From: Burkholderiales bacterium
Lineage (GTDB): Bacteria > Pseudomonadota > Gammaproteobacteria > Burkholderiales > SG8-39
DNA: 64,000 nt
Assembly (NCBI GenBank): GCA_035459025.1
Contig: DATHYT010000034.1
Span: 9,072 to 73,071 of the forward strand
Direction: 5' to 3'
The position numbers and the translations under genes are program-made. Shown here piece by piece: positions 27,053 through 59,528 of the stretch. Each line of letters starts with the position of its first letter. The stretch's first letter is position 1. The notes beneath the pieces were generated by a model that saw only the letters and a list, made by a program, of their open reading frames with translations, did not search any database and was not told where the DNA came from.

Positions 27053-28822
27053 CTAGCGCCGGAAGCGGATCTCCTGCGGGTAGGGAAAGACGTCCTCCTG
27101 CACCCCGGCGCGCAGGCGCGCCTGCTTGTCGGCCCAGAACTGCGGGTCCATCAGGTCGGCGTGGCGCTCGAGGAACAGCGCGCGCGAGGCCGCGCCGGTG
27201 ACGAGGAACTTCTCGAACTGCTCGGGAAACACGTCGTGCGGGCCGATCGAGTAGTACGGCTCCGCGGCCATCTCGTCGTCGAACGAGCGCGGCGCCGGGA
27301 TCCTCCGGAAGTTGCACTCGGTCATGTAGGCGATCTCGTCGTAGTCGTAGAACACGACGCGCTCGTGGCGCGTGACGCCGAAGTTCTTCAGCAGCATGTC
27401 GCCCGGAAAGATGCCGGCGCCGGCCAGCTCCTTGATGGCGTCGCCGTACTCGTGCAGCGCCTGGCGCACGCGCTCGATGGCGCCGTCGCCGATCGCCTCC
27501 TCGAGGTACAGGTTGAGCGGCTGCATGCGCCGCTCGATGTACATGTGCTTGATGACCACCTTGTCGTCCTCGAATTCGATGTTCGAGGCGGCTTCGGCCT
27601 TCAGCTCTTCGAGGAGCTCGGGCGCGAAGCGCTCGCGCGGCAGCGCCACCAGCGAGTACTCCAGCGTGTCGGCCATGCGCCCGACGCGGTCGTGCATCTT
27701 CACCAGCAGGTACTTGTCGAGCACCGTCTGCCGGTCCATCTCCTTGGGCGGGGCGAAGCGGTCGCGGATCACCTTGAAGACGTAGGGAAACGACGGCAGG
27801 GTGAACACGAGCATCACCATGCCCTTGATGCCGGGCGCGACCGTAAACAGGTCCGACGAATGCTTCAGGTGATAAAACAAGTCCCGGTAGAACATGGTCT
27901 TGCCCTGCTTGGCGAGGCCCACCGCCATGTACATCTCGGCGCGCGGCTTCCTCGGCATCAGATGGCGCAGGAACGACACGTAGGCCGCCGGCACTTCCAT
28001 ATCGACGAAGAAGTAGGCGCGCGCAAAGGAGAACAGGACGAGCAGCTGGTCGGCCTCCAGCAGCAGCGCATCGAGGTAGAGCTCGCCGCGCTCGTTCTGC
28101 AGGATCGGCACCGCGAACGGCACTTCCTCGCTGCCGTTCACGATCTTGCCGACCGCGTAGGCGGCCTTGTTGCGGATGAAGAGCGACCCCAGGACCTGGA
28201 TCTGCAGGTTGGGGCGCGCGCGCGCAGGGCGCGGAAAGCGCGCGCGCAACGCGCGCAGGACGCTGCGCAGGTCGCGGTGCAGGTCTTCCCAGGGGTTGGC
28301 GAGGTCGAAGCCGCGCACGATCGCCGCCAGGGTCCGCCGCAGGGTCTTCCTGCGCGGATAGTAGCTGCGATAGGCAAGCTCTTCGCCCTCGAGGTGCTCG
28401 GTGGCCACCGCCGGCCGCCAGAAGATGAACTCATTGCGGTAGTAGCGCCGGTGCAGCACCTGGCAGGCAACGGAGTTGTAGAAGGTCTCGGCGCATTCGG
28501 GCTGCCGGTGCTCGTGCAGGAGCGGAATGTAGGCGAGCTTGATCGCCGGCCACAGCGACTCGTCGGTCTCGGCTTCCGGAAAGTGCGACCGCACCTCCTC
28601 GACCGCCTCCTGCACGCGGCGGTCGTACATCAGGATGCGCGCGCGCGCGAGCTCGCCCATCGCCGCCCAGTCGGCGCGCTCGAACAGGTGCTTCGCGCGC
28701 GCCGAGGCCTCGCGGAACAGGCGGTAATGCTTGTCGAAGCCGGCGAGAATGGTGCGCGCCACCTCGCCGGCGCGCTCGCCGCGCGCCGCGTGGATGGGCA
28801 GGACCTTCGCCGGCGCCGTCAA
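27053..28822 (-). CDS. aceK: isocitrate dehydrogenase kinase/phosphatase AceK
   Basis: 589 aa: ILAGFDKHYRLFRE..., FIFWRPAV..., GIFPGDMLLKNFGVTRHERVVFYDYDE (AceK kinase core). Begins 1 nt after the aceA stop. Confidence 0.92.
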   Translation of the reverse strand: MTAPAKVLPIHAARGERAGEVARTILAGFDKHYRLFREASARAKHLFERADWAAMGELARARILMYDRRVQEAVEEVRSHFPEAETDESLWPAIKLAYIPLLHEHRQPECAETFYNSVACQVLHRRYYRNEFIFWRPAVATEHLEGEELAYRSYYPRRKTLRRTLAAIVRGFDLANPWEDLHRDLRSVLRALRARFPRPARARPNLQIQVLGSLFIRNKAAYAVGKIVNGSEEVPFAVPILQNERGELYLDALLLEADQLLVLFSFARAYFFVDMEVPAAYVSFLRHLMPRKPRAEMYMAVGLAKQGKTMFYRDLFYHLKHSSDLFTVAPGIKGMVMLVFTLPSFPYVFKVIRDRFAPPKEMDRQTVLDKYLLVKMHDRVGRMADTLEYSLVALPRERFAPELLEELKAEAASNIEFEDDKVVIKHMYIERRMQPLNLYLEEAIGDGAIERVRQALHEYGDAIKELAGAGIFPGDMLLKNFGVTRHERVVFYDYDEIAYMTECNFRRIPAPRSFDDEMAAEPYYSIGPHDVFPEQFEKFLVTGAASRALFLERHADLMDPQFWADKQARLRAGVQEDVFPYPQEIRFRR

Positions 28823-28823
28823 C

Positions 28824-30128
<1,305 letters not shown>

Positions 30129-30253
30129 GGGAATCCTCAGGTTAGGTTGGGAGAAAGCCTCCCTTCGACCATAGCCCAGAAAAATACCGCGCAGCAACAA
30201 TTCATCTGCCGCCGTCTTAGTATTCCCAAAACAAGGATTTACAGAGACTTAGG

Positions 30254-45500: not shown

Positions 45501-46694
45501 TTATAGCCGTGCGGCCCCGCTTTTCACCATGGCGTCGATCTGCGCGTCGTCGTAGCCCGCCTCGCGCAGTACCTCGCGCGTGTGCTCGCCGAAGCGCGGT
45601 GCGTGGCGCCGGTAGGCGGGCGCCGTCTCCGACCACTCCGAGGGCACCTTCATCGACAGGAGCGAGCCCTCGCTCGGGTGCTCGACGGGCGTGAAGTAGC
45701 CGATCGCCTCGAGGTGCGGATCGCGCAGGATGTCCTCGAGGCTGTTCATGCGCTGCACCGGGATGTCGGCGGACCCAAGCGCGGCGAGCCACTCGTCGGT
45801 CGTGCGCCGGGCCATCTCGTCGGCGACGAAGCTGTAGACGGCGTCGAAGTTCTGGCTGCGCCCCTCCGCGGAGGCGAAGCGCGGGTCGGCCACCATGTCG
45901 GCGCGCCCGACCATCTCGAAGAACGCCTTCCAGTGCTTGTCGTTGTAGATCAGCGCGCAGACGTAGCCGTCCTTGGTCTCGTAGGGGCGGCGAAAGCGCG
46001 TGAGCATGCGCCGGTAGCCCCCCTCGCCCAGTTGCGGCACGAAGGTGTAGCCGCCCAGGTGCTCGCCGAGCACGGACTGCAGCAGGCTCTCGAACATCGG
46101 CACGTCGACGCGCTGGCCCTTGCCGGTCTTCTCGCGCGCGTAGAGCGCCGCGCTTACCGCGTTCGCCGTGTGCAGGCCCACCGAGCGGTCGGCGATGATC
46201 ACCGGCGTGTAGCGCGGCGACTCGCCGCTCGCCTCGCGCGACAGCCACGGCAGGCCCGCCGCGCCCTGGATCAGATCGTCGTAGGCGGCCTTGGCGGCGT
46301 ACGGGCCGCGCTGGCTGTAGCCGAAGCAGCCGACGTAGATGATGCGGGGGTTCACCGCGCGCACGTCCTCGTAGCCGAGCTTCAGGCGCGCCATCGCCTG
46401 CGGACGGATGTTGTACACGAGCACGTCGGCGGCCTTCGCCAGCGCGAGGCAGGCGTCGCGTCCCTCGGGCCTCTTCAGGTCGAGCACGATGCCGCGCTTG
46501 TTGCGGTTGGCGTTGAGGAAGATGTGCCCCATGCCCTTGGAGCGGAACGGCCAGGCCCAGCGCATGATGTCGCCCTCGGGCGGCTCGACCTTCACCACGT
46601 CGGCGCCGAAGTCGGCGAGGATCTGCGTGGCGTAGGGGCCCATCACCACGGTGGTGAGGTCCAGCACGCGCACGCCATCCAGCGGTCCGGGCAT
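45501..46694 (-). CDS. CaiB/BaiF-family (class III) CoA-transferase
   Basis: GVRVLDLTTVVMGPYATQILADFGADVVKVEPPEGD, catalytic Asp region AAYDDLIQGAAG, C-terminal PRFGEHTREVL. Confidence 0.88.
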   Translation of the reverse strand: MPGPLDGVRVLDLTTVVMGPYATQILADFGADVVKVEPPEGDIMRWAWPFRSKGMGHIFLNANRNKRGIVLDLKRPEGRDACLALAKAADVLVYNIRPQAMARLKLGYEDVRAVNPRIIYVGCFGYSQRGPYAAKAAYDDLIQGAAGLPWLSREASGESPRYTPVIIADRSVGLHTANAVSAALYAREKTGKGQRVDVPMFESLLQSVLGEHLGGYTFVPQLGEGGYRRMLTRFRRPYETKDGYVCALIYNDKHWKAFFEMVGRADMVADPRFASAEGRSQNFDAVYSFVADEMARRTTDEWLAALGSADIPVQRMNSLEDILRDPHLEAIGYFTPVEHPSEGSLLSMKVPSEWSETAPAYRRHAPRFGEHTREVLREAGYDDAQIDAMVKSGAARL

Positions 46695-50609: not shown

Positions 50610-50686
50610 GCGCCCGTAGCTCAGCGGATCAGAGTATTGGCCTCCGAAGCCAAGGGTCGTGGGTTCGAATCCCGCCGGGCGCGCCA
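50610..50686 (+). tRNA. tRNA-Arg (anticodon CCG)
   Basis: Hand-folded cloverleaf. Acceptor GCGCCCG/CGGGCGC, D-arm GCUC...GAGU, anticodon stem UUGGC/GCCAA with loop CU-CCG-AA, T-arm GUGGG-UUCGAAU-CCCGC, discriminator G, encoded CCA. 77 nt. Confidence 0.93.
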
Positions 50687-50697
50687 CACCCACGCCG

Positions 50698-51882
50698 ATG
50701 TTTGAGCTGAGCGACACCCAGAAGGCCCTGCAGCAAAGCGCGCGCGACCTGGCGAAAAGGAAGTTCGCGCCGCGCGCCGCCGAGATCGACCGCCGCGAAG
50801 AATACCCGTGGCACAACGTCGAGCTGCTGACGCAGGCCGGCTTCATGGGCATGACCATTCCCCAGGAGTACGGCGGCCAGGGGCTGGGCTACCTGGAGGC
50901 GGTGCTGGTGATCGAGGAAATGGCGCGGGTCTGCGGCGTCACGGGCCGCATCGTCGTCGAGGCCAACATGGGGGCCATCGGCGCCATCATGAAGTACGGC
51001 ACGCAGGCGCAAAAGACGCTGGCCGCGAAGCTGGTGCTGGCCGGGGACAAGCCGGCGATCTGCATCACCGAACCCGAGGCGGGCAGCGCGGCGACGCAGA
51101 TGAGCACACGGGCCGATCGCAAGGGCGGGCGCTACGTGCTGAACGGCCGCAAGCACTGGATCACCGGAGGCGGCGTCTCCAAGCTGCATCTGATCTTCGC
51201 GCGGGTGTTCGAGAACGGCGTGGAGCAGGGCATCGGCGGGTTCATTGCCGTGCGCGGCGAGGCCAGGGGCCTCGTCGTCGGCCGGCGCGAGCCGGCGATG
51301 GGCCTGCGCGGCATCCCGGAGTGCGAGATCCTGTTCGAGGACCTGGAGATACCGCTGGAGATGATGCTGGTGCCCCCCGAGGGAATCCGGCGTGGCTTCG
51401 CAGGACTGATGAACGCCTACAACGGCCAGCGCGTCGGCGCCGCCACGGTGGCGCTCGGCATCGCCGCCGGGGCCTACGAGCTGGCGCTCGAGTATGCGCA
51501 GACGCGCAAGCAGTTCGACCGACCGATCTGCGAGTTTCAGGGCCTGCAGTGGATTCTGGTCGACATGCACACGCAGCTGGCCGCCGCGCGTCTGCTGATC
51601 CACAAGGCCGCGGCGGGATCCGGCGACGGCTTTCCCGACATGACCGAGGCCGCCCAGGCCAAGGTGTTCGCCGCCGACATGGCGATCAAGGTCACCAACG
51701 ACGCCCTGCAGGTTTTCGGCGCGGCCGGCTATTCGCGCGAGCTGCCGCTCGAGCGCATGGTCCGGGATGCGCGCATGTTCACCATCGGCGGCGGCACGGC
51801 GCAGATCCTGCGCACCGTGATTGCCTCGCAGCTGCTCGGACGCAAGCTGCCGCAGACGCGCGACGGCTACAGGAATCTCTAG
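50698..51882 (+). CDS. acyl-CoA dehydrogenase-superfamily flavoprotein lacking both canonical catalytic Glu positions; probable 3-sulfinopropionyl-CoA desulfinase (Acd-like)
   Basis: ACAD fold (ITEPEAGSA, HWITGGG, ERMVRDARMF). The IYEGT position reads IGGGT (Gly365, 51790-92). The IVD/LCAD-type base position reads Gln244 (51427-29). Arg84 (50947-49) sits in VTGRIVVEAN. ATG 50698 lies 11 nt after the tRNA. Confidence 0.75.
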   Translation: MFELSDTQKALQQSARDLAKRKFAPRAAEIDRREEYPWHNVELLTQAGFMGMTIPQEYGGQGLGYLEAVLVIEEMARVCGVTGRIVVEANMGAIGAIMKYGTQAQKTLAAKLVLAGDKPAICITEPEAGSAATQMSTRADRKGGRYVLNGRKHWITGGGVSKLHLIFARVFENGVEQGIGGFIAVRGEARGLVVGRREPAMGLRGIPECEILFEDLEIPLEMMLVPPEGIRRGFAGLMNAYNGQRVGAATVALGIAAGAYELALEYAQTRKQFDRPICEFQGLQWILVDMHTQLAAARLLIHKAAAGSGDGFPDMTEAAQAKVFAADMAIKVTNDALQVFGAAGYSRELPLERMVRDARMFTIGGGTAQILRTVIASQLLGRKLPQTRDGYRNL

Positions 51883-53849
51883 CTTGAAGGCACGGTTGCC
51901 CGCGCGCCCAGCCACGTAATCGCGGCGCCGGCCGCGGCGAGCGCCAACCCGGCGAGCGAAAGCTGCAGGTGGCTCAGGCCCAGTTCGCCGCCGCCGGGCA
52001 TCGCCATGACCAGGCCGCCCGCGAGCATGAGCAGCCGCGCCGCCCAGCCGAGCGCGCTGCGCGCAACCGCGCCGATGCCCACCACGTAGCCTTCGAGCGC
52101 CGAGCCGATGAGCGCGATGCCGGCGATCGCCGTGCCGACCACGACGACGATCTCCCACGGCGTGCCGCGCAGGATGAGCGCCGGGTTGAGCACGAAGAAG
52201 AACGGCACGAAATACATCGCCGCGCCCAGGCGCACCGACTGCAGGCCGACCTGCATGGGCGGCGCCTTGGCGATGCCGGCGGCGACGAACGCGGCGAGCG
52301 CCACCGGCGGCGTGATGAACGACACCATGCCCCAGTACAGCATGAACAGGTGCACCGCCACCGGATCGAAGCCGGCGCCGACCAGCGGCGGCGCGAGCAC
52401 GATGGCGAGGAAGATGTAGCACGCGGTGATCGTCATGCCCATGCCGAAGATGAAGCTGGTGACTGCGCCCATCACCAGCAGCACGTAGATGTTGTTGCCG
52501 GCAAGGTAGACGAGGTCGTTGGCGAGCGTGCCGGCAAGGCCGGTGACCGAGAGCGCGCCGATGATGAGGCCCACGCCCGCGAGCAGCGCCGCGAGCTCGG
52601 AAAGCGCGCCGCCCACGCCTTCTAGCAGCGTGCGCAAACGCCTCCAGTCGAGCCGGTAGCGGCGCGAGAACTGGTTGATGACCAGGAGCAGCGCCGTGGC
52701 GTAGAACGGCGCGAGCGACTCTCGCTGCAGCACGAGCAACATGTAGACCAGCAGCGCGAACACGAACAGGTAGTGCCAGCCCTCGAGGAATGTCTGCCCG
52801 AGCGAGGGCAGCTCTGATCGCGGCAAGCCCTTCAAGCCGTTCTTCGCCGCGTAGCCGTCGATCTGCACGAACAGGGCGAAGTAGAAAAGCAGCGACGGCA
52901 CCAGCGCGGCGACGGCGATGGCGACGTAGGGCAGGCCGAGGAACGACGCCATGACGAAAGCGGTGGCGCCCATCACCGGCGGCATGAGCACGCCGCCCGT
53001 GGAGGCGCAGGCCTCGACCCCGCCCGCGTAGGCCGGCCGGAAGCCGATGCGCTTCATCGCCGGGATCGTGACCACGCCGGTGGTGAGCACGTTGGAAACC
53101 ACGCTCCCGGAGACCGAGCCCATCAGGCCGCTGGCGAAGATCGACACCTTGGCCGGGCCGCCGCGCACCGAGCCGAAGAGGGCGAATGCGAGGTTGTTGA
53201 AGAAATGCGCCGCGCCGGTGTATTGCAGCACCGCGCCGAACATGACGAAGCCGATGACGAGCTCGCCGAAGGCGCGCGTCGGGATGCCGAGCGCACTCTC
53301 GCTGGAGGCGAAGTGAAATGACGCGGTCGAGGCAAGATCGCGCGGCAGCCCGGCGATCGGCCCCGGCATGTGCCCGGCGAACACCGGATACAGAGAGATC
53401 AGCGCCACGACCACGAACACGGCGTTGCCGCCGGCGCGCCGCGTCGCCTCGAGCAGCATCACCCAGCCGACGTAGGCGATCCAAACCGCCTGCGCCGGCG
53501 CCTTGTACTCCCATCCTTCCTCGACGATGCGCTGCGCGTGCAGCGCGAAATACGCGAACACGGCGAACGAGGTCGCAAACAGCAGCACGTCGTACCAGGG
53601 CACGGCATTGCGCCGCGCGTGCTTGCCCGCCGGCACCAGCAGAAACACGCTGCCCACGAGCAGCGCGCATAGCCAGTACAGATACGCGGTGTCGAGAAGC
53701 GTTTTGCCGACGAAGAAGCCGAGGTTGAGCAGCTGGTTGAGCGCAAGGCCGATCGCGCCCGAGACGAGGACGATGAGGACGACGCGCCACAGCGGCGCGA
53801 GCGAACGATAGCGTGCCTCGATCGGCGCCGCCTCGGCGGCGTCGGCCAT
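51879..53849 (-). CDS. TRAP transporter fused (DctQ/DctM-type) permease, TAXI subfamily
   Basis: 656 aa with about 18 TM helices. ALISLYPVFAGHMPGP, SGSVVSNVLTTGVVTIPAMK. Sits directly downstream of the TAXI binding protein. Confidence 0.88.
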   Translation of the reverse strand: MADAAEAAPIEARYRSLAPLWRVVLIVLVSGAIGLALNQLLNLGFFVGKTLLDTAYLYWLCALLVGSVFLLVPAGKHARRNAVPWYDVLLFATSFAVFAYFALHAQRIVEEGWEYKAPAQAVWIAYVGWVMLLEATRRAGGNAVFVVVALISLYPVFAGHMPGPIAGLPRDLASTASFHFASSESALGIPTRAFGELVIGFVMFGAVLQYTGAAHFFNNLAFALFGSVRGGPAKVSIFASGLMGSVSGSVVSNVLTTGVVTIPAMKRIGFRPAYAGGVEACASTGGVLMPPVMGATAFVMASFLGLPYVAIAVAALVPSLLFYFALFVQIDGYAAKNGLKGLPRSELPSLGQTFLEGWHYLFVFALLVYMLLVLQRESLAPFYATALLLVINQFSRRYRLDWRRLRTLLEGVGGALSELAALLAGVGLIIGALSVTGLAGTLANDLVYLAGNNIYVLLVMGAVTSFIFGMGMTITACYIFLAIVLAPPLVGAGFDPVAVHLFMLYWGMVSFITPPVALAAFVAAGIAKAPPMQVGLQSVRLGAAMYFVPFFFVLNPALILRGTPWEIVVVVGTAIAGIALIGSALEGYVVGIGAVARSALGWAARLLMLAGGLVMAMPGGGELGLSHLQLSLAGLALAAAGAAITWLGARATVPSS

Positions 53850-53863
53850 GGCGCTTGCCTAAC

Positions 53864-55018
53864 TCACCAGCTCGTCTGCACCGGGTCGAAGCCGGCCTTG
53901 GTCAGCGCCGCGGCGCGCCGCTTCTGCCACGCTTCGACGAACGCCTTGTCGTCGGCGTACGAGCCCTTCTTCTGCTCGGCCCAGGCCGCCGTGAGCACCG
54001 TCTGGCGCTCGAGAAGCTTGTCGTTGTGCGCCTGCTCGGCGGCGCCCCACTTGCCCATTTCCTTCCAGAAGCGGATCGCGCCGTCGTGGAACGGGATCAC
54101 CCAGGCGAAGTTCTGCCGGTCGACCGCCCAGCCGGCGTTGCCCGGCGCGGCGCCCTTGTACATGTCGTAGGTCTCGACCATCGCCTTGGTCATGTTGTAG
54201 ACGAGATTCGCGTCCTGCGAGGCGTAGGTCATCAGGATCGGGTACGGATAGGTGGCCGATTCCGCGGGCTTGTCCTTCGACAGCTCCGCGCCCTCGGTGC
54301 CCATGAACGGGAAGAAGAACGGCGCCACCGCGTTCATGCGCGCCCAGCCTGCCTTGTCCTTGTGCGAAATGATCGGGTAGACGAGGCCGCGCGGCGACTT
54401 GGCGATCTGATAGGCCTTGCCCGAGATCGACGAGGTGAAGGCGGCGTCGACCTGGTTGTTGATGATGCCGTCCATCGCTGCACCGAAGCCGCCGAACTCG
54501 ACCTTGCGCACGTCGTCCCAGGTGAGGCCGGAGAAGGCGAGCATCGCGGTGATGTTCTGGTTGAGCGCCGGCGAGCCGATCACCCAGGCGACGCGCTTAC
54601 CCTTCAGGTCCGCGATGGTGCGCACGCCCGCATCGCCCGCAGCGACCACGGTCAGCACCTGGTCGGAGGTGTTCAGCATCAGTCCGCGCACCGGCTGCGG
54701 GCCCCAGCTCGGCGCGCCGAACTCGAACACGCCTTCCATGGCGAGGTAGGCTCCGCCCACTCCGTTGGCGGAGAATTGCACCTGACCCTCGCGAATCGGC
54801 AGGTTTCTCGACACGTCGTTCTTGCCCGGCAGCACCCTGAGGCTCACGTTGTACTTCTGCTTGAGCGCGTTGCCGATGGCGACGGCCTGGTTGTAGCCGC
54901 CCGAGCCGACGTCGTAGGCGCTCCAGGAAATCGTCGGCGGCAGCTTGACGTCGGCGTGCGCGGCGACGGAGAAAGCGAGCGTGGCGCCGAGCGCCGCGCG
55001 AAGCAAAGCGTGGGTCAT
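53864..55018 (-). CDS. TAXI-family TRAP transporter solute-binding protein
   Basis: GGAGGAGG SD upstream of ATG 55018. Signal peptide MTHALLRAALGATLAFSVAAHA. SGGYNQAVAIGNALKQ, LPGKNDVSRNLPIREGQVQFS. Confidence 0.85.
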   Translation of the reverse strand: MTHALLRAALGATLAFSVAAHADVKLPPTISWSAYDVGSGGYNQAVAIGNALKQKYNVSLRVLPGKNDVSRNLPIREGQVQFSANGVGGAYLAMEGVFEFGAPSWGPQPVRGLMLNTSDQVLTVVAAGDAGVRTIADLKGKRVAWVIGSPALNQNITAMLAFSGLTWDDVRKVEFGGFGAAMDGIINNQVDAAFTSSISGKAYQIAKSPRGLVYPIISHKDKAGWARMNAVAPFFFPFMGTEGAELSKDKPAESATYPYPILMTYASQDANLVYNMTKAMVETYDMYKGAAPGNAGWAVDRQNFAWVIPFHDGAIRFWKEMGKWGAAEQAHNDKLLERQTVLTAAWAEQKKGSYADDKAFVEAWQKRRAAALTKAGFDPVQTSW

Positions 55019-55077
55019 GATGCCGTCCTCCTCCAAGGTATGCCCACCGATGTTAACCGATTCCCCGGGGCGCTAGA

Positions 55078-55671
55078 ATGCTATCCCCGATGAGCCAGCC
55101 GATCAGCCGCTACCCCGTTCCCGAGCTCAAGAACCTGCCCGAAGACGTGCGCGCGCGCATCCTCGCGGTGCAGGAAAAATCAGGCTTCGTCCCCAATGTG
55201 TTCCTGGTGCTGGCGCACCGCCCCGAGGAGTTCCGGGCGTTCTTCGCCTATCACGACGCGCTGATGGAGAAGGAGGGTGGGCTCACCAAGGCGCAGCGCG
55301 AGATGATCGTGGTCGCGACTTCCGGGGCCAACCACTGCCAGTACTGCGTGGTGGCGCACGGCGCCATCCTGCGGATCCGGGCGAAGAATCCCCTGGTGGC
55401 CGACCAGGTGGCGATCAACTACCGCAAGGCCGATATCCCGCCGCGAGAAAAAGCGATGCTCGACTTCGCCATGAAGGTGGCGCTCGAGTCGCACGCGCTG
55501 GGCGACTCCGACCTCGAGGCGCTGCGCCGACACGGGTTCACCGACGAGGACGCTTGGGACATCGCCGCCATCGCCGCCTTCTTCGCGCTGTCCAACCGGA
55601 TGGCGGACTTCACCGCCATGCGGCCGAACGACGAGTTCTATCCGATGGGGCGGGTGCCGAAGGAGAAGTAG
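55078..55671 (+). CDS. AhpD-like / carboxymuconolactone-decarboxylase-family protein (peroxidase-related enzyme)
   Basis: CxxC motif SGANHCQYCVVAHG, with an FFALSNRMAD tail. Alternative start ATG 55090 if TAGAAT at 55074-79 is the -10. Confidence 0.8.
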   Translation: MLSPMSQPISRYPVPELKNLPEDVRARILAVQEKSGFVPNVFLVLAHRPEEFRAFFAYHDALMEKEGGLTKAQREMIVVATSGANHCQYCVVAHGAILRIRAKNPLVADQVAINYRKADIPPREKAMLDFAMKVALESHALGDSDLEALRRHGFTDEDAWDIAAIAAFFALSNRMADFTAMRPNDEFYPMGRVPKEK

Positions 55672-55675
55672 CCGC

Positions 55676-57541
55676 TCAGGCGGCCAGCACCGCGCCGCCG
55701 CGCGCTGCGGGCGCCTGCAGCCAGCGCGCCACGTCGGCGACACCCTGCCCGGTGGTGGCGGCGGTGCTGAACACGGGAACGGCCGGGCCTTTCTTCAGCG
55801 CGAGCATGCCGAGCAGATCGCGCGCCGTGCGCTCCGCGCCCGCGAGGTCGGCCTTGTTGACGACGAACGCGTCGGCGATCTCCAGGATGCCCGCTTTCAG
55901 CGCCTGCACGTCGTCGCCCAGGCCCGGCGGGCAGACCACCAGGCGGGTCGCCGCGATGCTCGCGATCTCGACCTCGGATTGCCCCGCGCCGACCGTTTCC
56001 ACCAGCACGTAATCGAAGCGCGCGGCGTCGAGCAGCGCGACCACGCTGCGCGTGGCGCCGCTCACGCCGCCAGCGTGCCCGCGCGAGGCGAGCGAGCGGA
56101 TGTAGACCTCCTCGTGTCCCTGCACGTCGCCCATGCGGATGCGATCGCCGAGCAGCGCGCCGCCCGACACCGGGCTCGAGGGGTCCACCGCCACCACCGC
56201 GACGCTCGCGCCGGCCGCGAGCAGTTCCTTTGTGAGCGCGGCGAGCAGCGTGGACTTGCCCGCGCCGGGCGGGCCGGTGATGCCGATCACCCGGGCGTGA
56301 CCGCGATGCGCGGCAAGCTGCCGGCCGAGCGCCGCGCCCTCGGCGCTGCCGTTCTCGATTTCGCTGATGGCGCGCGCGATTGCGCGGCGCTCGCGCGCCA
56401 GCACGCGGTCTGCGAGGCTCGAGCGCGCCTGCAGCAGCTCGGCGTTGTGCTCGCCGAGCTGCGGCGGGGGCGCATAGGCCTGCGCCATGCCGTCGACGCG
56501 GATCGGGTTGCCGACGGCGCGGATCGCTGCGCCCCCGGCGTCGATCGCGACCAGCATGTCGCGTTCCTTTGCGAGCTCGGAGCCGAGCGCCTGCTCCAAC
56601 GTCTGGACCGGGGCGGCCACGACGCCGAGCGGCGCCAGGCGCGCCATCCACGACGCGGTGCTGCCGCCCTTGAAAAGCGGCACCAGCGCGGCGAGCACGG
56701 CGTCGCGGTTCTCGCGCCGCGCCGCCATGGTGGCGAAGCGCGCGTCCTGCACCCAGTCGGCGCGGCCGACCTCGCCGCAGAAACGCCGCCAGAACTCGTC
56801 GTGCGAAATGAACACCACCAGCCAGCCGTCGCTCGTCTCGAACACCTGCGCCGGGACGATGTACGGGTGCGCCGAGCGCGCCATGCGCTGCGCGCGCTCG
56901 CCCGCGTTGAGCCACGCCCCTGCCAGGTAATTCAGCTGCGAGAGCATTACGTCGTGCATCGAGACGTCGATCTGGCCGCCGCGGCCTTCGACGATCTTCG
57001 ATAGCAGCCCGAGCGCGCCCATCATGCCGGCGGAGTTGTCGACCGCCGAGTAGCCGGTCTTCGCGGGCGCGCCGCCGGGCTCGCCGGTGATCGCCATGAC
57101 GCCCGTGAGCGCCTGGATGACGTAGTCGTAGGCCGGGCGGTCGGCGTGGCTGCCTTCCAGGCCGTAGCCGGTGAGCGCAACGCAAACCAGCTTCGGGTTC
57201 GCGTCTTTCAGCGCCTCGTAGGTCAGGCCGAGCTTCCTGATCGCCGCGGGCCGCAGGTTGGTGACCAGGGCGTGCGCGCGGGCGGCGAGGCCGCGCAGCG
57301 CGGCGCGGCCATCGTCGCGCGCCAGGTCGAGCGCGACGCTCTTCTTGCTGCGGTTGAGGCTCGCGAAATAGGCGTTATGCCCGCCCACCTGGTGCGGGCT
57401 GACGCGCCGGCCGATGTCGCCCTCGGGCGGCTCGATCTTGATCACTTCGGCGCCCAGGTCGGCGAGCAGCATGCCGCAGTAGGGACCGGCGAGCATGTGG
57501 CCGACCTCCAGTACGACGATCCCCGAGAGCGGGCCGCTCAT
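55676..57541 (-). CDS. fusion protein: class III (CaiB/Frc-type) CoA-transferase (about aa 1-372) + MeaB/ArgK-type mutase-associated GTPase (about aa 373-621)
   Basis: One uninterrupted 621-codon ORF. GIVVLEVGHMLAGPYCG, catalytic Asp in RPAYDYVIQALTG, PQLGEHNAELL, then RAIARAISEIENG, P-loop GITGPPGAGKST (56249-56275), DPSSPVSGGALLGDRIRM, VETVGAGQSE, NKADL. ATG overlaps the stop of the B12 subunit (ATGA). Confidence 0.85.
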   Translation of the reverse strand: MSGPLSGIVVLEVGHMLAGPYCGMLLADLGAEVIKIEPPEGDIGRRVSPHQVGGHNAYFASLNRSKKSVALDLARDDGRAALRGLAARAHALVTNLRPAAIRKLGLTYEALKDANPKLVCVALTGYGLEGSHADRPAYDYVIQALTGVMAITGEPGGAPAKTGYSAVDNSAGMMGALGLLSKIVEGRGGQIDVSMHDVMLSQLNYLAGAWLNAGERAQRMARSAHPYIVPAQVFETSDGWLVVFISHDEFWRRFCGEVGRADWVQDARFATMAARRENRDAVLAALVPLFKGGSTASWMARLAPLGVVAAPVQTLEQALGSELAKERDMLVAIDAGGAAIRAVGNPIRVDGMAQAYAPPPQLGEHNAELLQARSSLADRVLARERRAIARAISEIENGSAEGAALGRQLAAHRGHARVIGITGPPGAGKSTLLAALTKELLAAGASVAVVAVDPSSPVSGGALLGDRIRMGDVQGHEEVYIRSLASRGHAGGVSGATRSVVALLDAARFDYVLVETVGAGQSEVEIASIAATRLVVCPPGLGDDVQALKAGILEIADAFVVNKADLAGAERTARDLLGMLALKKGPAVPVFSTAATTGQGVADVARWLQAPAARGGAVLAA

Positions 57542-57951
57542 GCCAGCGCGCGCGCCAGCTCGTCGATCATCTGCGCGAGCGGCGCGTCGTTGGTGAACAC
57601 GCCCTTCACGCCTGCGGCGAGGAGCGCCTCGCGGTCCTGCGGCGGGATGGTGCCGCCGACGAATACCGGGATGTCGCCCGCGCCCGCGGCGCGCAGGCCC
57701 TCGAGCACCTCGCAGGACAGCGCCTGGTGGCTCCCCGAGAGGATGGAAAGGCCCACGGCGGCGACATCCTCGTCGAGCGCCACGCGCACGATGAAATCGG
57801 GCGACTTGCGCAGGCCCGTGTAGATCACCTCCGCCCCGGCGTCGCGCAGCGCGAGCGCGATCACCTTGGCGCCCGCGTCGTGCCCATCGAGGCCGGGCTT
57901 GGCGACGAGGATCCGCTTGCCCGCGAGGGGCCCTGCGGCGGGCGCGCTCAT
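57538..57951 (-). CDS. cobalamin-binding small subunit of a split acyl-CoA mutase
   Basis: 137 aa. DxHxxG motif in KPGLDGHDAGAKV, GLSILSGSH, VFVGGTIP. ATG 57951 overlaps the large-subunit stop (ATGA). The rest of the 764-aa track ORF is a shadow frame. Confidence 0.9.
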   Translation of the reverse strand: MSAPAAGPLAGKRILVAKPGLDGHDAGAKVIALALRDAGAEVIYTGLRKSPDFIVRVALDEDVAAVGLSILSGSHQALSCEVLEGLRAAGAGDIPVFVGGTIPPQDREALLAAGVKGVFTNDAPLAQMIDELARALA

Positions 57952-59528
57952 AGCCGCACCGGCTCCTGGAACTCGCCCCAGCAGCGCTTGAGGCGCGCGA
58001 CCATCTCGCCCACGGTGGCGTAGGCGTGGCAGCACTCGACGAGCAGCGGCATCAGGTTCTCCTTGTCGTCGGCGGCCGCGGCCTCGAGCGCATCGAGCGC
58101 CCGCCCCGCGCGCGCCGCGTCGCGCCGCTGCTTCACGGCGGCGTGCTTGTCCAGCACGCGCGCGGCCGTGCCCGGGTCGAGGCGGAACACCTCGCCGAAG
58201 CTCTGCGCCTGCCCTTCGCGCCGGTAGCGGTTCATGCCGACCACCACGCGCTCGCCGCGGTCGGTCGCGTCCTTCTTCTCGCGGGCGCGCAACGCGATGC
58301 GGCGCTGCAGCCAGCCGTCCTCGATCGCCTTCACCACGCCGCCGTAGGCGTCGATCTCGCCCATCGCCTGGCGCATGCCTTCCTCCATGCGGTCGGTGAG
58401 CCACTCGACGTAGTAGCTGCCGCCGAGCGGATCCACGGTCGCCGCGACGCCGCTTTCGTGCTGCACGATCTGCTGCGTGCGCAATGCGAGCTCGGCGGAG
58501 AACTCGGTCGGGATCTGGAAGGCCTCGTCGTAGGCGCAGGTGAAAATCGACTGCGCGCCGCCGAGCACCGCGGCGAGGTTCTCGATCGCCACGCGCACGA
58601 TGTTGTTGTAGGGCTGCGCGGCGACGAGCGAGGAGCCGCCGCACACCACGCCGAAGCGAAAGTGCAGCGCCTTCTCGTCGGTAACGCCGTAGCGGCTGCG
58701 CAGCAGCTGCGCCCACAGGCGGCGCCCGGCGCGGAACTTGCACGCCTCCTCGAACAGGTCCATGTGCACGTAGAAGAAGAACGACAGCCGCCGCGCGAAC
58801 TTCGCCACGTCGCCGCCCCGGCGGATGAGCTCGTCCACGTAGGCGAGGCCGTTGGCGAGCGTGTAGGCCATCTCCTCCACCGCCGTGCAGCCCGCGTCGC
58901 GCACGTGCGCCCCGGCGATCGAGATCGCGTTGAAGCGCGGCGTCACCTCGTTCGCGTAGAGCACCGAGTCGGCGATCAGGCGCATCGACGGCCGCACCGG
59001 GAAGATCCAGGTGCCGCGCGCGACGTACTCCTTCAGGATGTCGTTCTGGATGGTGCCGGTGAGCTTGGCGCGCGGCACGCCCTGCTTGTCGGCCGCGGCG
59101 AGGTACATCGCGTAGATGATCGCCGCCGTGCCGTTGATGGTGAACGAGGTGGAGATCGCGCCGAGGTCGATGCCGTCGAACAGGGTCTCCATCTCCGAGA
59201 GCGAGAACAGCGACACGCCCACCTTGCCGACCTCCGGCCGCGCCATGGGGTCGTCGGGGTCGTAGCCGCATTGCGTGGGCAGGTCGAGCGCGACCGAGAG
59301 CCCGGTCTGCCCCTGCTCGAGCAGGAACCGGTAGCGCTGGTTGGACGTCTCCGCGGAGCCGAAGCCCGAGTACTGGCGGATGGTCCAGGGCCGCCCGCGG
59401 TAGCCGTCGGCGAAGATGCCGCGCGTATACGGATAGACGCCCGGCGCGCTGGGCGCGGCGGCCATCTCCTCGCGCACCACCACGGGCACCTCGATTCCCG
59501 AGGGCGTCGTTACGCGCGCGTCGCTCAT
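57948..59528 (-). CDS. acyl-CoA mutase large (substrate-binding TIM-barrel) subunit, divergent methylmalonyl-CoA-mutase family member
   Basis: PYTRGI, RPWTIRQYSGFGS, GLSVALDLPTQCGYD, GTIQNDILKEYVARGTW, PYNNIVRVAIE, LRTQQIVQHESG. Several family-invariant motifs are replaced (see findings). Confidence 0.88.
   Translation of the reverse strand: MSDARVTTPSGIEVPVVVREEMAAAPSAPGVYPYTRGIFADGYRGRPWTIRQYSGFGSAETSNQRYRFLLEQGQTGLSVALDLPTQCGYDPDDPMARPEVGKVGVSLFSLSEMETLFDGIDLGAISTSFTINGTAAIIYAMYLAAADKQGVPRAKLTGTIQNDILKEYVARGTWIFPVRPSMRLIADSVLYANEVTPRFNAISIAGAHVRDAGCTAVEEMAYTLANGLAYVDELIRRGGDVAKFARRLSFFFYVHMDLFEEACKFRAGRRLWAQLLRSRYGVTDEKALHFRFGVVCGGSSLVAAQPYNNIVRVAIENLAAVLGGAQSIFTCAYDEAFQIPTEFSAELALRTQQIVQHESGVAATVDPLGGSYYVEWLTDRMEEGMRQAMGEIDAYGGVVKAIEDGWLQRRIALRAREKKDATDRGERVVVGMNRYRREGQAQSFGEVFRLDPGTAARVLDKHAAVKQRRDAARAGRALDALEAAAADDKENLMPLLVECCHAYATVGEMVARLKRCWGEFQEPVRL

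Follow-up and report, generated by a model that had tools for sequence, protein, structure and literature searches.

The systems described so far that are closest to the locus presented here are those of Advenella mimigardefordensis DPN7 and Variovorax paradoxus TBEA6. In the known pathway, Mdo oxygenates 3-mercaptopropionate to 3-sulfinopropionate; the CoA ester of the latter is made by SucCD or by Act, a CoA-transferase that depends on succinyl-CoA, and is split by Acd into propionyl-CoA and sulfite (PMC6370202, PMC5373536). The desulfinase is devoid of the catalytic Glu, displays AGG where YEG would be expected and catalyzes a non-redox reaction (PMC8360864, PMC9293079), without performing any dehydrogenation (PMC9293079). 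The crystal structure 5AHS is that of a sulfinopropionyl-CoA desulfinase (PMC8360864), and both entries for the DPN7 enzyme (AcdDPN7; 5AF7 and 5AHS) were deposited under the title "acyl-CoA dehydrogenase."

We analyzed a stretch of 64,000 nucleotides (hereafter the window), which is a chromosomal stretch of approximately 70% GC from a metagenome. Genes in the neighborhood of acd were called using GC3 in combination with domain scans, and are the following:

AmpG, then MetX: the genes before the first CoA-transferase (GC3 calls and domain scans)
45501-46694, minus strand: family III CoA-transferase, 4 kb upstream of acd (PF02515, 375 bits)
PtsI / HPr / EIIA, then GshB: between this CoA-transferase and cytochrome c
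Cytochrome c, minus strand: between GshB and tRNA-Arg
50610-50686, plus strand: tRNA-Arg(CCG) (ARAGORN)
50698-51882, plus strand: acd, ortholog of 3-sulfinopropanoyl-CoA desulfinase, 394 aa and a TAG stop
51879-53849, minus strand: TAXI-type TRAP fused permease (TIGR02123, 563.9 bits)
53864-55036, minus strand: TAXI family TRAP solute-binding protein (TIGR02122, 202.4 bits)
55078-55671, plus strand: AhpD-like "peroxidase-related enzyme" (CMD family; CQYC motif; TIGR01926, 220.9 bits)
55676-57541, minus strand: fusion protein of 621 aa, family III CoA-transferase plus MeaB GTPase (PF02515 at residues 5-366, PF03308 at 389-606)
57538-57951, minus strand: B12-binding small subunit, 137 aa (domain scan)
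57948-59528, minus strand: MCM-like large subunit, 526 aa (domain scan)
IclR (minus strand), then amidase, then RNase G: after the MCM-like large subunit

The translated acd product is a protein of the acyl-CoA dehydrogenase (ACAD) fold, as the initial annotation had claimed: the N-terminal, middle and C-terminal ACAD domains (PF02771, PF02770, and PF00441) are all found by Pfam, and the fold can be considered settled given the 62% identity to a crystal structure. The initial annotation had also singled out three residues, and these are present in the translation together with their motifs exactly as described:

50947-50949, plus strand: codon CGC for Arg84, in the motif VTGRIVVEAN, equivalent to Arg84 of AcdDPN7
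51427-51429, plus strand: codon CAG for Gln244, in the motif YNGQRVG, at the catalytic-base position of the IVD/LCAD type, equivalent to Gln246 of AcdDPN7 and Glu254 of isovaleryl-CoA dehydrogenase (IVD)
51790-51792, plus strand: codon GGC for Gly365, in the motif IGGGT, at the base position of the MCAD/SCAD type (the Glu of Y-E-G), equivalent to Gly366 of AcdDPN7

The assignment of Gly365 to the position of the MCAD-type Glu is borne out by a HMMER alignment, in which the I-Y-E-G-T of the butyryl-CoA dehydrogenase 5OL2 pairs with the I-G-G-G-T of the acd protein. Likewise, the placement of Gln244 where IVD and LCAD carry a Glu in front of a conserved Arg agrees with the ungapped alignment obtained by BLASTP with human IVD, in which Glu254 falls on Gln244 and Arg255 on Arg245; the IVD fragment used is an exact match to residues 250-394 of 1IVH. 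These alignments show that both dehydrogenase base positions of the predicted protein are without a carboxylate, and that Arg84 is present. Arg84 is reportedly essential in AcdDPN7, whose positions 246 and 366 we take to be the vacant base positions, and the activity of 3-sulfinopropanoyl-CoA desulfinase presumably corresponds to EC 3.13.1.4.

When compared by phmmer to all PDB sequences, the acd protein has its best match in AcdDPN7 (5AF7/5AHS; E 1.3e-156, 524.7 bits, residues 1-392 versus 1-393), followed at 252.5 bits by a genuine ACAD. The pairwise alignment with AcdDPN7 that the initial annotation had called for gives 62.4% identity over 391 aligned positions, with all three residues being equivalent (R84 to R84, Q244 to Q246, and G365 to G366), which also explains the near-identical numbering that it had pointed out. 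The acd protein also matches NF042439, an equivalog model curated by NCBIfam for "3-sulfinopropanoyl-CoA desulfinase," with 669.9 bits (cut-off, 600). The runner-up model, acryloyl-CoA reductase, reaches 320.7 against a cut-off of 640, and none of the other models approaches its own cut-off. Elsewhere, NF042439 gives 667 bits for the representative of the family's 50%-identity cluster (P0121), 328-454 bits for distant proteins with the same three residues (R/Q/G), and at most 352 bits for proteins devoid of this triad. As acd scores like P0121, it belongs to the core of the family and not to its edge. The superfamily phylogeny, which had likewise been suggested, was computed by neighbor-joining, and acd, AcdDPN7 and P0121 cluster with a bootstrap of 100/100; the wider R/Q/G group is monophyletic, but with a bootstrap of only 37/100.

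Orthology to the crystallized and assayed AcdDPN7 is thereby shown at the level of sequence, and the identity as a desulfinase and not a dehydrogenase, as proposed in the initial annotation, is supported by the NF042439 score, the best PDB match and the tree. We therefore propose that acd very probably encodes a 3-sulfinopropanoyl-CoA desulfinase with an ACAD fold that does not oxidize its substrate, the desulfinase chemistry itself being inferred by orthology. The predicted FAD-containing protein would convert 3-sulfinopropionyl-CoA (3SP-CoA) and water into propionyl-CoA and sulfite, the sulfino group being removed hydrolytically. Judging from the family, Arg84 would bind and polarize the sulfinate for the attack by water, and the FAD would stay oxidized. 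The substrate might stem from 3-mercaptopropionate via a thiol dioxygenase and a subsequent activation by a CoA-transferase or succinyl-CoA synthetase, as in the characterized members (PMC6370202, PMC5373536), and the propionyl-CoA formed would be expected, again from the family, to enter central metabolism.

The nearest genome match of the protein (91% identity) comes from a "Betaproteobacteria bacterium" MAG, and an identical protein is found on contigs of ENA assemblies labeled ZHEN15-1. The initial annotation had warned that a routine annotation would read acyl-CoA dehydrogenase. This holds for older homolog records, which are named "acyl-CoA dehydrogenase family protein" or "AidB-like," but not for the current NCBIfam and JGI annotations: homologs at 82-93% identity carry the name 3-sulfinopropanoyl-CoA desulfinase (JGI, NCBI), those at 93% being named so by JGI.

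The distribution of the three residues was assessed in a MAFFT alignment of 107 full-length superfamily representatives of 50%-identity clusters. The R/Q/G combination is found only in the 8-9 nearest relatives, and is a clade signature and not a chance coincidence. A Glu or Asp occupies one of the two base positions in 83 of the 100 representatives outside the clade, and in none within it; outside the clade, the column of residue 365 holds Glu in 61 of the 100, and that of residue 244 Glu or Asp in 21. Column 84 mostly consists of V, L, T, I or M in the same 100 representatives, consistent with the small hydrophobic residue that the initial annotation had ascribed to ordinary ACADs. Among close homologs, R84, Q244, R245, and G365 are kept in all 122 aligned sequences. 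An ordinary acyl-CoA dehydrogenase that has recruited its catalytic base from another position would have the complete ACAD fold and the motifs contacting FAD, both of which are kept here, and the acd protein contains 15 acidic residues without an acidic counterpart in AcdDPN7. Yet, the known base positions hold none of the 15, and the only one located within a substrate/FAD motif, E127, varies between E, G, D, and Q among close homologs, and is therefore unlikely to be catalytic. Together with the Gln and Gly that are invariant in the clade at the canonical base positions, and with the lack of dehydrogenation by the closest assayed relative (PMC9293079), this makes a dehydrogenase with a displaced base highly improbable, and we retain the desulfinase assignment.

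The extent of the gene required some attention, as the longest open reading frame starts with a GTG at 50659, inside the tRNA-Arg(CCG) gene (50610-50686). Because of this overlap, and because the Met1 encoded by the ATG at 50698 pairs with Met1 of AcdDPN7, the ATG is the right start, and the coordinates 50698-51882 given in the initial annotation are upheld. The ATG follows the end of the tRNA gene by 11 nt, with no visible Shine-Dalgarno sequence in between. The same tRNA and spacing are found in the orthologous loci L087 and L088, whose acd genes are 90-91% identical, but not in L006. The arrangement suggests that acd is transcribed together with the tRNA-Arg gene or by read-through from it. 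The possibility that acd lies on an island inserted at this tRNA gene was also considered and rejected, as the 3' end of the tRNA is not repeated anywhere in the window, the composition shows no break and the neighbors include no integrase.

No other protein gene lies on the strand of acd at this spot, and acd converges on the TRAP permease gene with an overlap of 4 bp (51879-51882). It is therefore in no operon with any of its neighbors, and with the two stop codons overlapping, neither strand has space for an intrinsic terminator; a promoter and terminator scan around acd returned nothing above the shuffled expectation. A monocistronic gene located 11 nt after a tRNA, with neither a visible Shine-Dalgarno sequence nor a promoter, could be taken for a decaying or non-catalytic remnant that has kept its fold. 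This reading is hardly credible, as the frame is intact and full-length, 133 columns are invariant across the 122 close homologs, and the dN/dS of about 0.16 relative to the two orthologs at 90-91% identity indicates that acd is under purifying selection.

None of the usual partners, i.e., mdo, an Act-type CoA-transferase gene or lysR, was found by domain scans to adjoin acd in the window, and no CDO or cupin domain was detected among the approximately 41 window ORFs scanned (of the ORFs at 30-36 kb, the scan took in all but a few). Two family III CoA-transferases are encoded at some distance (45501-46694 and 55676-57541). They are about 32-35% identical to the transferases adjacent to acd in other genomes (about 33% for the one at 45501-46694), and score 238 and 250 bits with the succinate-glutarate CoA-transferase model, versus 472 bits, so that the identification of either as Act is not supported by their sequences. 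The enzyme encoded at 45501-46694 might tentatively be regarded as a candidate for the activation of 3-sulfinopropionate. The second one, fused to MeaB, lies directly downstream of the split MCM-like acyl-CoA mutase and the IclR regulator, and could perhaps link CoA transfer to the neighboring mutase. Homologs of this fusion form more than 45 clusters of 606-739 aa in Betaproteobacteria/Burkholderiales metagenome data, alongside unfused orthologs of approximately 375-390 aa, and are named "MeaB" or "CoA:oxalate CoA-transferase" depending on the source; to our knowledge, this fusion architecture has not been characterized. The operon of the split mutase and the CoA-transferase-MeaB fusion was rejected as an obligatory partner of acd, since L087 shares the acd-TRAP-CMD block but lacks this operon. 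Farther away, an isocitrate lyase gene adjoins the gene for the isocitrate dehydrogenase kinase/phosphatase AceK (27053-30200, minus strand), a pair that represents ordinary glyoxylate-shunt control unrelated to acd.

The genomic context was surveyed in 43 orthologous acd loci from GTDB species genomes. A family III CoA-transferase gene lies directly upstream of acd on the same strand in 14-18 of the 43 loci, often accompanied by a LysR gene, an arrangement that matches the characterized clusters (PMC5373536, PMC6370202). In another set, from other lineages, 13 of the 43 loci, and also L005, L086 and L089, encode directly downstream of acd an acetolactate-synthase-like TPP enzyme, which is not found beside acd in the window. 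This enzyme is about 535 aa long, is encoded on the same strand as acd and often within 13 bp of it (L089, 9207-10814; L086, 9550-11157; L005, 11431-12948), and is followed in Rhodospirillales loci by an MsrB (SelR) gene. Its best NCBIfam match is NF006187, at 341 bits versus a cut-off of 509. The gene cluster of V. paradoxus TBEA6 likewise includes an "acetolactate synthase" (PMC6370202).

The diversity of these ortholog contexts (TPP enzyme, sarcosine oxidase, TAXI-TRAP), a neighborhood devoid of mdo, act, and lysR, and the existence of distant R/Q/G proteins below the NF042439 cut-off would fit a paralog of the desulfinase clade acting on another CoA-bound organosulfur substrate, e.g., another sulfinyl-acyl-CoA, instead of 3SP-CoA. 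We consider this improbable, since acd exceeds the equivalog cut-off with a score equal to that of the core representative P0121 and groups at full bootstrap support with the assayed AcdDPN7, and since succinyl-CoA synthetase can provide 3SP-CoA without any dedicated neighbor gene (PMC5373536). 3SP-CoA thus remains the favored substrate of the predicted desulfinase.

The AhpD-like gene, in turn, is a recurrent genomic partner of acd. In two loci from Rhodospirillaceae MAGs (L009, 6359-6913; L010, 2882-3439), acd is immediately followed, on the same strand, by a homolog of 75% identity, a value close to the 73% of acd, and an "AhpD core domain" gene lies next to mdo-acd in A. mimigardefordensis (PMC5373536). 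The best PDB match of the AhpD-like protein is 2PRR, an uncharacterized structural-genomics entry. The TAXI-TRAP permease and binding protein genes are also found between acd and the CMD gene in L006, L087, and L088, and by inference encode a candidate importer only. One may speculate, at rather long odds, that in this uncultured betaproteobacterial lineage acd, the TAXI-TRAP system and the AhpD-like CxxC protein form a compact module devoid of mdo and act, which would take up 3-sulfinopropionate, an analog of succinate, or some related organosulfur acid from outside and desulfinate it. If this were true, the transporter would be the first TAXI-TRAP system specific for sulfinates, and the AhpD-like protein, whose gene recurs beside acd in three lineages distant from one another, would represent a pathway component not described so far.

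The practical value of these observations lies in annotation, the correct name of the gene product being 3-sulfinopropanoyl-CoA desulfinase and not acyl-CoA dehydrogenase, while the knowledge of the enzyme itself is unchanged. As judged from its sequence, acd would mark its host as able to free sulfite from carbon derived from 3-mercaptopropionate. Homolog searches show that the desulfinase family occurs widely among uncultured Alpha-, Beta- and Gammaproteobacteria. The literature considered here deals almost wholly with two laboratory strains growing on synthetic polythioester precursors, and the role of the pathway in nature is under-studied.

With the isovaleryl-, medium-chain and short-chain acyl-CoA dehydrogenases (1IVH, 3MDD, 5OL2 and others), the acd protein has the fold of three domains in common, with identities of 30-44% and scores of 200-250 bits. 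However, in those enzymes one of the base positions is occupied by Glu and residue 84 is hydrophobic, neither of which applies to the acd protein: the catalytic carboxylate for the C2 proton that characterizes EC 1.3.8.x is replaced by Gln and Gly at both known positions of the predicted protein. AcdA of V. paradoxus TBEA6, likened here by its description, converts 3SP-CoA to propionyl-CoA and sulfite (PMC6370202), and would have the same role in the pathway as acd. It is encoded in an acdA-act-mdo cluster, and many orthologs of acd similarly lie directly downstream of a family III CoA-transferase gene, whereas acd in the window is paired with neither act nor mdo. The strain DPN7 has a CoA-transferase/mdo/LysR/prp cluster (PMC5373536) that is absent from the neighborhood of acd in the window. 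The mdo-act-acd-lysR arrangement is not seen at this locus, and the AhpD-like partner is the sole member that it has in common with the DPN7 cluster (PMC5373536). AcdDPN7 (5AF7/5AHS) has the ACAD fold, Arg84, and the Gln and Gly at the base positions in common with the acd protein, and both keep the FAD/substrate motifs C-I-[TS]-E-P, W-I-T-G-G-G, and x-G-G-T. They differ in the last motif (I-G-G-G-T in acd versus I-A-G-G-T in AcdDPN7), in a deletion of two residues in acd near residue 189 and in an insertion of one residue near residue 307. Unlike that of AcdDPN7, the host of acd is an uncultured betaproteobacterium. This enzyme family has already been published together with its signature and structure, and the gene described here adds a new, uncultured host to those of a known enzyme.
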